Assembly (NCBI GenBank): GCA_964532425.1
Contig: CAZHIA010000002.1
Coordinates: forward strand, 233,798 to 297,797
Length of the DNA: 64,000 nt
From: an uncultured Candidatus Saccharibacteria bacterium
GTDB taxonomy: Bacteria > Patescibacteriota > Doudnabacteria > UBA920
Direction of reading: 5' to 3'
Every line of letters starts with the position of its first letter. Positions within the stretch are counted from its first letter, which is position 1. Shown here piece after piece: positions 9,001 through 12,000 of the stretch. The position numbers were made by a program.

Positions 9001-12000
9001 GACCCAGACGGGCGGACGAATGTGCCGGGACTGTTCGCGGCCGGTGCGGCTTCGGTGGGTGCCATTAAAAATACGTTTACTGCCATTGGCGAAGGTGTCC
9101 GTGCTGCATTGTGTGCACAACTGCATTTGCGGAAGGAAAGAACTTGAGATATACTCAAGGCATGAAAAGATTTTCCGCACACCAGGATCGCTTCACATGC
9201 CGCCTCACCGTCCAGCCTGCGCGCGCCTGCGCCTTCATCACTACTTGCAGATAAAGCTCCGCCTTCCGGCGGAGTTTTAAATTATCCGAATTATCAGGAG
9301 GATTAAAGGTATGGTCTTGCCATTCCTATGTCAGACAATGGCTACTCGGGTGCTGTCATGGCAAGCGTGAACTGGGACTATCATAGTTATCGGCACAAAG
9401 TGAGGTATCAAGTGCAAGAAGGACGCAAAATATTCAGGTCGAAGCCGCGGCTTCATTTGATTCACCGGACGTTCGCCTATGACCCGTCGTGGTACGAGCT
9501 GTTCGGCTTCAAGGAACCTGAACAGGTCCTGAAGCTGCTTCAGCGGGCGGAGCGGTTAAAGCGCTTGCAGGGGATCGCGCTCGCACACAGGATTCCAGAG
9601 CCTCCGCCGTTTCTGTCACAGGAAACACGCTATCTTTTGCGACTGAGCAAAAAGAAGGTTCCGCGCCGGAATCGCATCCAAAAGCATCACATGGTGCCGG
9701 TCAGCAGAGGTGGCAGTAATGCCAAACAGAATCTGTTGCGCTTGAAAGCGGGCCGGCATGCGGCCTGGCATGACCTGTTCGACACCAATACCTGGCAGGA
9801 AGTCATTGCCAGTTTGAGCTCCATCATCCAGCGGCAGAAAACGCTTGAACAAGCAGCCTGAACAGGCTAGACCGGTCACGATGGCCGGTCTTTTCTTGTG
9901 TCTTTCGGTATACCACGTTGGTATTCTTGTGCATAATTGCAGTTGCATTGCCTTACACGGTAGGATATACTTGGACTATGAAAAGCATTTCCGCAATCCA
10001 GAACTTCCCTCTGCACGGTTTCGCCTGCCCGGCTCCGCGCGCTTGCGCCTTCGTTATCGTTCGCTAAACCCCGCTTGCGCGGGGTTTTAAAATTTCAAAT
10101 TTTTAAGGAGGCGCCTGGCACAACGGAGCTAATTTGCGGCCTTTCGCGTTATTACGTGTCTTTGTTGGGAGAAAATTATGGACTTCGACAGTGAAAGCTG
10201 GAAGCCATTCCTGCGCAAGCGGAATCGAATCGAGAGAATTGACAGGGGTCTTTGGAAGGACGCTGATACCAGGGTTACCGGAGCGTTGGCGGGTTTCCCC
10301 CGCGAGTTCCAGCCGTACGATTCCCTCTGGAAGCAGATCTTCGGCGATCATACGGTCGCGGAAGCCATCACGCTTCTGCAGCGCATTCAGCGGTTGAAAC
10401 GGCGGCCCATTGTGTATCTGAAGCGATACGTGGTCCTGGCCGATACGTCATGGGTGTGCGTCATTGGCAGACGGGGTGTTATTTGGTCAACTGTCTGGGG
10501 ACAGACTGTCTTCGTCCGGGCGCGCAAGCCTCGAAAGAAGAACCCGTCCATCAATCGCCACCACATGCTCCCGGCGAGCAGGGGAGGGGCAGCTGTTGCC
10601 TCGAACCTGGTATATATGCGCATCGCAAGGCATTGTGCCTGGCACAAGAAATTCGGACTGGCAACGTGGTCGGAGGTTATTGACGGCCTCAGTCGTTGGC
10701 GGGTTCAGCATGAACCCCGCATCCGGATTATGGCTGCTTGAGTGCGGTAGTAGGCTGGTCCATTGGGCCAGCCTTTTTATATTTATTGTTGATTTTGCTG
10801 AGGAATTTTGTCATTTACCGTAAAAGGGTATGTTCTTTTTAACTCACATACGTTAGAATAAAAGCAGTTAAATTAAGCCTAATACAGGGTAATTCCCCCA
10901 AAATCATTGACAAATCAGGCGTTTTTTCCTATACTATAGAGAATTATTTTATACTATTAATTAATTCATCTGCTTTAAACATATGAAAACACTGGTAAAA
11001 TTAGCGGCTGCGGCTGCCTTTTGTCTGGCCCTAACCCTGCCCGCAACCCATCATGCCTTGGCGTATAATCCAACCCTCACGGTCAACCAGGAGGGTGGTG
11101 CGGATAATGTCCGCATTACGGTCCAGGCAGATCCTTGGAGCCAGATTACGCTCTACCGTCGGCAGTCCACCCAAATGTGGACCGTCATTACGAATTTCGG
11201 TCAAACCGATGGCAGTGGCTATTTTTCCCAGTTGATGAGCCTGGGGTCTGATGGTACGAATAGTGTGATTGAGATGTATGCCATGGTCAACGGCCAACAG
11301 TCTTCCACGGTGCAGACCTATCCTTACAATAATGGCGGCTGCACTTATAATTGTGGCAGCCCGACCGGTCTGAATCTGAGCCAGAGCAGTATTACACTCA
11401 GCCAGGGACAGAACATGACCGTTACGGCCAACAATGCGTATGGCAGCATGTATATTTCCGGCAACACCAATTCCTCGGTTGCCAGCGCCAGTCTTTCCGG
11501 TAATCAGATTAACGTGTATGGAAACTCCAACGGCTCGACGACAATCACCGTATGCGCCAACAACAATGGCTGCGCCAGCTTGTATGTAAATGTCAACAAT
11601 AACGGCGGGTATTGCACCTTCGGTAATTGCAACAATGTCGGCGGTATCACTTTTAGTAACAACAATCCATCCCTCTCGGTCGGTCAGAGTATGAGCATTA
11701 CGGTCAGTTCTCCTATTTACGGCGCTTCCCAGAGCTTTTATGTTTCGAATAACAGCAATAACAGCGTGGTGACAGCCAGCATGAATGGTAGTACGCTGCA
11801 GCTTTACGGCCAGAATTCCGGCAGCAGCACGATCGCCGTGTGCCAATCCGGCACTTCAGCGTGCAGTAATTTGTATGTGACCGTGAATGGTTCCGGCTAT
11901 TGCACCTTTGGCAATTGCGGCGGCAATACGCTCTCGCTGAGTCAGTCCAGCCTGACCCTTTCCCAGGGCCAGACCGCAACCGTGACCTCGTACTCCAGCT

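Follow-up and report, generated by a model that had tools for sequence, protein, structure and literature searches.

How is the expression of two small genes for HNH-like proteins controlled, when each is preceded by a leader that looks like a riboswitch? The question is raised by a stretch of 64,000 nt from an uncultured Candidatus Saccharibacteria bacterium (contig CAZHIA010000002.1, positions 233,798 to 297,797; hereafter the window), in which two modules, each composed of a leader and a gene for what we call a mini-HNH protein, follow one another. The first-pass annotation had read the leaders as a riboswitch or attenuator, with promoter, aptamer-like region, intrinsic terminator and ribosome-binding site (RBS) in that order. 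Our analysis supports the cis-regulatory part of this proposal, since the order recurs in at least five further lineages, and speaks against the aptamer, for which we found no folding beyond that of shuffled sequences, no Rfam match and no sequence conservation outside the window clade. The feature is real and conserved, and it is most likely a cis-regulatory leader rather than a riboswitch. From sequence comparison, we lean towards the view that the modules are transcription attenuators of the leader-peptide type, dependent on the ribosome and acting on leaderless mRNAs.

Alignment and a repeat finder recovered both modules where they had been annotated. They lie head to tail with a spacing of 816 nt (repeat finder, core block), and in each a promoter is followed by conserved blocks, by a GC hairpin with a short run of U, and by AGGAGG (Table 1). 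The annotated TTGC-17-TATACT promoter is present in both modules, with weak -35 hexamers (TTGCGG in module 1, TTGCAT in module 2). Exactly 6 nt past each TATACT stands an ATG (9162 and 9978), at the predicted +1; the sister species keeps this spacing from TATACT to ATG. The conserved segment “atgaaaag...”, which had been regarded as aptamer-like, is the start of an open reading frame (ORF) opened by this ATG. The TAA of each short ORF (sORF) forms part of the hairpin base. The conserved blocks are 9162-9185 and 9220-9236 in sORF 1, the second of which forms a GCGC/GCGC mini-hairpin, and 9978-10001 and 10036-10052 in sORF 2. The hairpin of leader 1 has a 12-bp stem and a 4-nt loop (-20.6 kcal/mol), holds the sORF stop within its stem base, and shows compensatory differences from leader 2 and from the corresponding leader of a sister species (L003). 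The hairpin of leader 2 has an 8-bp stem and a 4-nt loop and is 96% identical in the sister species; the segment from the stop codon on, including a weak second hairpin, folds at -15.9 kcal/mol. Thus the annotated hairpin exists in both leaders, but its T-run is just 4 U long in the RNA (GUUUUAAA), and a simple terminator scan missed the leader hairpins for this reason. A loose form of the promoter-ATG geometry occurs at seven sites on the two strands of the window, and an ORF ending at a strong hairpin at only these two. An sORF extending from the predicted +1 to the base of a terminator is characteristic of leader-peptide (ribosome-mediated) attenuators.

The same geometry was found before related genes whose leaders are unrelated in sequence. 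Near the window the protein family is very thinly sampled, and word-based protein searches returned only the same organism and one sister species. An exhaustive profile search yielded 766 representatives of the C-terminal domain of about 60 residues, among them few full-length two-domain relatives; the contigs of six such relatives were retrieved, and five show an anatomy like that of the window (Table 1). Conservation therefore extends beyond the two annotated copies, the same order of elements preceding homologous genes in at least five further lineages. In all seven leaders with a visible promoter, the -10 hexamer is followed by 6 nt and the ATG, at the predicted transcription start site (TSS), with no intervening Shine-Dalgarno (SD) sequence. 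All eight complete leaders hold an ATG-initiated sORF of 15-32 codons, and in 8 of 9 leaders an in-frame stop lies 0-1 nt before a hairpin of 8-12 bp with a 4-nt loop. The stems vary in sequence by lineage and pairing is always kept; every leader has the hairpin and U-run followed by an SD, and a strong SD begins 30-41 nt past the sORF stop. By chance, five independent lineages would all place an ATG at this one position with a probability of about (1/64)^5. In the promoter scan, the sigma-70-type site ending 6 nt before the ATG was the top-scoring one in L005 and L019 and the sole one in L020; in L018 the called site is the second of two, the other scoring higher and lying 12 nt upstream. Outside the window clade, nothing similar in sequence to the region from TSS to terminator was found (z -0.8 to 3.4), and the five related leaders resemble neither the window nor one another (pairwise z -0.8 to 2.3). 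The region measures 45 to 96 nt across loci. The comparative geometry (the 6-nt promoter-ATG distance, the stop at the stem base and the fixed SD distance) reveals a cis-element that lacks conservation of sequence or structure. Other searches added little: a profile scan of genome contigs gave just two distant relatives, without the leader; a search of viral contigs and tblastn against plasmids and phages found nothing; and a search by the TrxR-like neighbour of module 1 gave one short homologue, whose contig stops short of the leader.

Table 1. Features of the two modules, of the leaders at related loci and of a downstream neighbour gene.
Locus	Feature	Position	Strand	Remarks
Window	Module 1 upstream element TGTGCACAACTGCA	9112-9125	+	From sequence; common to module 2 and the sister species
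Window	Module 1 -35, TTGCGG	9127-9132	+	Lies, like the upstream element, in the 3' end of the short TrxR-like ORF
Window	Module 1 -10, TATACT	9150-9155	+	17 nt past the -35, 6 nt before ATG 9162
Window	sORF 1, putative leaderless, 30 aa, MKRFSAHQDRFTCRLTVQPARACAFITTCR, TAA	9162-9254	+	
Window	Leader 1 terminator-like hairpin and tail	9252-9282 (hairpin 9252-9279)	+	Tail UUUUAAAU
Window	AGGAGG, module 1	9296-9301	+	Exactly 14 nt past GTTTTAAA
Window	19-codon upstream ORF (uORF), MVLPF...SWQA	9311-9370	+	From sequence; also in L003
Window	Mini-HNH paralogue 1, 167 aa from ATG 9358	9358-9861	+	Frame open from 9328
Window	Gene 1 terminator	9869-9900 (9869-9891)	+	Terminator scan
Window	Module 2 upstream element TGTGCATAATTGCA	9928-9941	+	From sequence
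Window	Module 2 -35, TTGCAT	9943-9948	+	
Window	Module 2 -10, TATACT	9966-9971	+	
Window	sORF 2, putative leaderless, 29 aa, MKSISAIQNFPLHGFACPAPRACAFVIVR, TAA	9978-10067	+	
Window	Leader 2 terminator-like hairpin	10065-10092 (hairpin 10067-10086)	+	Tail UUUUAAAA
Window	Orphan AAGGAGG, module 2	10105-10111	+	No start codon at SD distance
Window	RBS GGGAGA, gene 2	10167-10172	+	
Window	Mini-HNH paralogue 2, 187 aa	10178-10741	+	
Window	Gene 2 terminator	10752-10784 (10752-10774)	+	Terminator scan
L005	Leader			TTGACA-16-TATAAT, 6 nt, ATG; 32-codon sORF; TAA adjoins hairpin; AAGGAGG, gene
L018	Leader			TTGCCG-18-TATACT, 6 nt, ATG; 26-codon sORF; TAA adjoins hairpin; AAGGGGG, gene
L019	Leader			TTGACA-16-TATACT, 6 nt, ATG; 15-codon sORF; TAG adjoins hairpin; AGGAGG, gene
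L020/L021	Leader			TTGAAA-17-TAATAT, 6 nt, ATG; 25-codon sORF; TAA adjoins hairpin; GGGAGG, gene
L017	Leader			Contig begins 6 nt before ATG, promoter not visible; 29-codon sORF; TAA adjoins hairpin; GGGGGG, gene
Window	Ig-like repeat protein gene	10983-13361		
L005	Ig-like repeat protein gene	1608-2414		
L006	Ig-like repeat protein gene	1970-3469		
L020	Ig-like repeat protein gene	2019-3465		

Two direct copies 816 nt apart could reflect a recent segmental duplication, the outcome that the first-pass annotation had named as refuting its proposal, or a gene conversion, in either case without function. The two genes are indeed paralogous, as annotated, but their proteins share only 32% identity (E 2e-20), and third codon positions are 29% identical between the two coding sequences (CDS1 and CDS2), which amounts to saturation, so that this refutation does not apply. 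The leaders, in contrast, show 74% mean column identity when aligned and match at 81 of 137 nt (59%) in the ungapped comparison (54-62% identical without gaps; p ~3e-8, binomial, against a null of 36%). Since third positions are saturated and the leaders are nevertheless 59% identical, the leader similarity is kept by selection and is not a remnant of recent duplication. The sister species has both modules (L003 for module 1; L004, L015 and L016), and its leaders resemble their orthologues more closely than their paralogues; this grouping and the architecture kept in distant lineages likewise speak against the duplication. A recent, non-functional duplication is thus refuted by the sequence data.

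The selected nucleotide blocks specific to the window clade comprise an element beside the -35, the initial 24 nt of the sORF and the GC mini-hairpin block. The two longest common blocks occur at only these two sites in 64 kb, against an expectation of 0 to 0.4, and a scan of metagenomes with the window-clade 5' block and the GC block gave four chance matches only (L010-L013) and no further copies. Immediately upstream of the weak -35 hexamer of each module (9112-9125 and 9928-9941) lies the imperfect palindrome TGTGCAnAAnTGCA (TGCA-N4-TGCA), with a near-identical TGTGCATAATTGCT in the sister species (L004, about 461-474); this palindromic element could be an operator.

Could these leaders be riboswitches, or protein-binding structured leaders, in which an aptamer between promoter and terminator senses a ligand? 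Promoter, conserved blocks, terminator and SD stand in the right order, an expression platform (terminator, then SD) is present downstream, and nucleotide blocks are selected within the window clade. The structural evidence, however, points the other way. RNAalifold on the three window-clade leaders returned the terminator, one invariant 4-bp GCGC/GCGC hairpin with a variable loop, which would suit a structured leader, and weak long-range pairs that are inconsistently kept; the covariation check that had been suggested gave none in this consensus fold and, the terminator and the 4-bp hairpin aside, no helix with consistent support. Folding energies are no better than those of shuffled sequences, for leader 2 as a whole (z -0.3) or for the sORF bodies (z -1.4 to +1.1). 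Neither the window nor seven related loci gave an Rfam 15 match at the gathering score, and the best sub-threshold matches cover the terminator only. No alternative antiterminator pairing was seen on inspection, and orthologous leaders of 45 to 96 nt have no common sequence. The modules therefore share with riboswitches the order of elements and differ from them in lacking a conserved aptamer, covariation and an Rfam match, the leader being an ORF instead. We regard a ligand-sensing leader as very improbable.

Two other structural candidates were rejected. Pairing of CCUUC in the conserved block with GGAGG, an anti-SD interaction, is strong in leader 2 of the window (GCGCCUUC/GGAGGCGC) and is not retained, because leader 2 of the sister species uses another partner and L003 has CCGCC. 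A general pause hairpin upstream of the terminator was also considered; small hairpins occur in leaders 1 and 2 of the window, L018 and L020, with energies not above those of shuffles.

The peptides encoded by the sORFs do not appear to matter as sequences. Comparison of six sORF peptides, taken from separate lineages, shows no relationship in sequence or in length. When the window is compared with the sister species, codon positions 1/2/3 carry 6/6/4 differences in sORF 2 and 13/10/57 in CDS2; the pattern in CDS2 indicates purifying selection, and that in sORF 2 shows no constraint on the peptide sequence. We nevertheless considered a cysteine-sensing attenuator, for which the polycysteine leaderless sORFs of mycobacteria offer a precedent (bioRxiv 10.1101/834739), because the sORFs of the window clade and L005 are Cys-rich (2-4 Cys per 29-32 aa, with CC in L005). 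This candidate was dropped once the sORFs of L017-L020 had been compared: those of L017, L019 and L020 hold no Cys and that of L018 only one, Cys positions are not kept (C to R in leader 2 of the sister species), and the downstream mini-HNH gene has no link to Cys metabolism. We give cysteine sensing very little credence.

The geometry suggests the following mechanism. Transcription would start at the A of the ATG, 6 nt past the -10 hexamer, and 70S ribosomes would translate the ORF of 15-32 codons, its amino-acid sequence being irrelevant. The sORF stop lies 0-1 nt from, and partly within, the stem of the predicted intrinsic terminator. A ribosome at the stop, with RNA polymerase still near, would cover the 5' arm of the hairpin; no terminator would form, and read-through to the SD and the mini-HNH gene would follow. 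If translation were not timely, the hairpin would form and the transcript would end as an RNA of about 115 nt. We infer the direction of the response, namely that translation gives read-through; the signal might be ribosome availability or the efficiency of leaderless initiation. The gap between sORF stop and gene start is only 40-110 nt and contains no convincing separate promoter (scans of L005, L018, L019 and L020) and none in the window modules; mini-HNH genes must therefore be transcribed by read-through. Each window gene has its own downstream terminator.

Several observations weigh against the attenuator. The TSS, sORF translation and termination are all predicted, and the model requires tight coupling of transcription and translation in an uncultured lineage. 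The openness of the ORFs is weak evidence, as the frame remains open in 34-53% of shuffles matched for composition, and the other frames come close to being open; the case for the sORF therefore rests on its start and stop positions. No competing antiterminator helix appeared in minimum-free-energy or consensus folds or by inspection, and the sORF peptides have no common codon enrichment and no regulatory codon runs, so that no specific signal emerges. The nucleotide blocks of the window clade, which are under selection yet absent in other lineages, are unexplained by the model; a common operator or pause element is possible. In L003 (leader 1 of the sister species), which has lost the stop, the ORF continues across the hairpin as far as the UAA in the U-tract, an exception that fits a rule in which translation melts the hairpin and not a strict rule of a stop at the stem base. 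At L006, a homologous gene lies behind a terminator and an orphan SD, without an sORF.

The arrangement at L006 would also fit a constitutive leaky terminator. The sORF and hairpin would then be a stand-alone unit, namely a gene for a tiny protein or small RNA together with the terminator of the upstream gene, and the mini-HNH gene would owe a constant, low expression to basal read-through, without regulation by translation. The short U-tracts (4 U in the window, L019 and L020) agree with such leakiness, and low expression suits a potentially toxic nuclease whose C-terminus is -AA, -VA or -FA in 27 of 150 family representatives. This explanation leaves unexplained, however, why the ATG stands exactly at the predicted +1 in every lineage and why the stop adjoins the stem in 8 of 9 leaders, although the peptide is not conserved. 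We consider it unlikely, both as fixed basal read-through and as a stand-alone unit.

A possible, though doubtful, extension of the attenuator is a filter for transcript origin. Co-directional upstream genes end inside or just before the sORF promoter without a terminator of their own; they encode the short TrxR-like protein in the window, TrxR in L018, an alpha/beta-hydrolase in L005 and L019, and ribH in L020. Since these genes have no terminator of their own, the leader hairpin would also end upstream transcripts. On those transcripts, the AUG would be internal and without an SD, and they would stop at the hairpin; transcripts with a 5'-terminal AUG would be translated and read through. If so, leaderless translation would decide which promoter's transcripts enter a restrained mini-HNH nuclease gene, with the uORF or orphan SD and a C-terminal Ala-Ala degron as further limits, and the filter would be a simple, portable design for promoter-specific bypass of a terminator.

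By analogy, the modules resemble the pyrBI/pil1 subtype of attenuator and not the trp subtype. In E. coli pyrBI, described by Turnbough and colleagues in the 1980s, the ribosome on the leader ORF physically blocks the terminator hairpin without an alternative antiterminator. The modules share with pyrBI a ribosome that would translate to or through the terminator and the lack of an alternative antiterminator structure; they differ from it in that pyrBI depends on polymerase pausing that is sensitive to UTP (uridine triphosphate) within a U-rich tract, its 44-codon ORF being SD-led and extending past the terminator, and no such pause tract was identified in the modules. In the pil1 locus of Streptococcus gallolyticus, a ribosome translating the leader ORF near a premature stem-loop terminator destabilises it and allows downstream transcription (Danne et al. 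2014, PMC3894217). Common to pil1 and the modules are a leader ORF reaching up to a premature terminator and the lack of amino-acid sensing. In contrast, the pil1 leader is SD-led and its length is changed by repeat slippage (phase variation), whereas the modules have a putatively leaderless ORF with its stop fixed at the stem base, and no tandem repeats were found in the leaders. The trp, his and leu attenuators (also in Corynebacterium, PMC3890552) likewise place a leader peptide and an intrinsic terminator before the regulated gene; their regulatory codon runs, their 1:2/2:3/3:4 hairpins and the preference for termination when the ribosome is at the stop have no counterpart in the modules.

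In mycobacteria, leaderless sORFs act as attenuators of downstream genes (bioRxiv 10.1101/834739), and conditional terminators associated with uORFs have also been reported (bioRxiv 10.1101/2022.06.01.494293). As proposed for the modules, an unannotated leaderless first cistron controls the downstream gene in cis, and NUGA stop/start overlaps serve for coupling; module 1 has such an overlap (GTGA at 9367-9370). The mycobacterial polycysteine sORFs differ in acting on translation, by unmasking of the RBS, and in sensing Cys; in the modules an intrinsic terminator adjoins the stop. The modules would add a case of leaderless leader-peptide attenuation from beyond the Actinobacteria, in a lineage that is poorly sampled and in which most genes have no SD.

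A second layer of control may lie between hairpin and gene. The AGGAGG after the hairpin, annotated as the RBS of the gene, is present in both modules but serves this purpose in neither: the strong copy of module 1 serves the 19-codon uORF, and that of module 2 is an orphan. The uORF with its own RBS had been correctly annotated in leader 1 and is kept in the sister species; its stop overlaps GTG 9367 as GTGA, 13 nt past ATG 9358. Its length, its MVLPF start, its ends and the GTGA/ATG overlap are kept in L003, and its middle is not. The sequence of this overlap indicates an arrangement for translational coupling. The start of gene 1, given as 9328 in the first-pass annotation, is most likely ATG 9358 (gene call P0001, a start kept in L003) or GTG 9367.

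In module 2, as in L015 and L006, no ATG, GTG or TTG lies 4-12 nt downstream of the AAGGAGG, and the gene starts 66 nt downstream with its own RBS. The orphan AAGGAGG is kept in L015, L016 and L004 of the sister species and in L006, and in other lineages the equivalent SD is the real RBS of the gene. A known STAB-SD is that of the cryIIIA mRNA. The STAB-SD concept of Gram-positive mRNAs is mentioned in PMC5737220, and by likeness to it, a perfect AAGGAGG without start codon far upstream of the real RBS (module 2, L015 and L006), the orphan may be a STAB-SD-like element, or else a retained relic of the ancestral start site. Most of the 28 long ORFs in the window lack an SD and about five have AGGAGG-like sites, so that the SDs of the modules stand out.

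What do the controlled genes encode? The first-pass annotation described a degenerate HNH motif in which the Cys ligands are lost. Their loss was borne out, since protein 1 has no Cys, protein 2 has two unpaired Cys, and neither has a CxxC...CxxC zinc site. The motif itself is not degenerate: five His/Asn residues (H128, H129, N143, H152 and H156 in protein 2 numbering) are invariant in an alignment of 80 sequences, as expected of the catalytic His, structural Asn and metal-binding His of such a fold. Searches of Pfam, NCBIfam, PHROGs, PADLOC and PDB gave sub-threshold HNH matches only; in Pfam, protein 1 scores 17.0 bits (cutoff 21.4) and protein 2 scores 11.8 (HNH_5, cutoff 27.5), and most family relatives are likewise below the cutoff. 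AlphaFold 2 (AF2) with the 80-sequence alignment predicted residues 121-187 with a pLDDT (predicted local distance difference test) of about 95 and a strand-strand-helix core. The top Foldseek matches were HNH domains with non-significant E-values, and Cas8-HNH superposes at 1.4-2.6 A over about 40 residues.

Compared with HNH/beta-beta-alpha-Me nucleases (PF01844; Gme HNH 4h9d, McrA 6ghc and Cas8-HNH), the mini-HNH proteins have the same HH...N...H...H motif and a predicted beta-beta-alpha core, but lack the CxxC zinc ligand, consist of a unit of about 60 aa that is often degenerately duplicated, and frequently end in Ala-Ala. The N-terminal half of the mini-HNH proteins holds a degenerate copy of the C-terminal helix motif H.AWH.LF...W.EVI..L (9478-9546 versus 9742-9810 of the window, second high-scoring segment pair), and many family members, P0009 and P0015 among them, repeat the unit in tandem. 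The mini-HNH proteins thus lack the zinc site and are probably active beta-beta-alpha-Me proteins. The family is large (766 representatives) and unannotated, and its expression appears to be restrained at several levels. Both window proteins end in Ala-Ala (9856-9861 and 10736-10741), and among 150 family representatives the C-termini include 17 AA, 7 VA and 3 FA, far above chance; the ending recalls a ClpXP degron of the ssrA type. Comparison of the window with the sister species gives 62-66% identity for paralogue 1 and 89% for paralogue 2, indicating that paralogue 1 is evolving much faster. Past HHMIPD, gene call P0002 (L003 500-656) is wholly divergent from its relatives; the contig appears to be chimeric or frameshifted near position 505.

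The presence of a nuclease gene behind a short RNA raises one more explanation, in which the terminated RNA of about 115 nt would be a trans-acting partner of the nuclease, serving as a guide, as a scaffold or as an inhibitor like a type III antitoxin. A promoter followed by a short RNA, a terminator and a nuclease gene does resemble type III toxin-antitoxin loci, and NCBIfam gave weak matches to the HNH region of IscB. These matches, however, cover the HNH motif only (15 bits against a cutoff of 175), and PADLOC returned no system or toxin match beyond weak sub-threshold ones. Unlike type III (ToxIN-like) systems, the leaders have no tandem-repeat RNA, the hallmark of their antitoxins. No structure or sequence is conserved across lineages as expected of a trans-acting RNA, and the ATG and stop geometry points to translation, not to an RNA partner. 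A partner RNA is accordingly a long shot.

The genes around the modules were also compared. The short TrxR-like ORF upstream (8599-9147, stop 9145-9147) encodes 182 aa with only the flavin adenine dinucleotide (FAD)-binding ends, and the leader of module 1 overlaps its 3' end as annotated, promoter 1 lying over it. The short form is kept in other lineages (L006 601-1134, 177 aa; L014 211-705, 164 aa), and the gene probably encodes a functional mini-flavoprotein and is not a pseudogene, judging from these sequences. L018 has a full-length TrxR of 307 aa at the same place. Directly downstream of the mini-HNH gene in four lineages lies a gene for a large secreted Ig-like repeat protein with Big_2, He_PIG and T2SS-T3SS_pil_N matches (Table 1). 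Elsewhere in the window, positions 24001-32000 have a G+C content of 0.41-0.43 compared with about 0.50 in the remainder, and this segment may be a horizontally acquired island.

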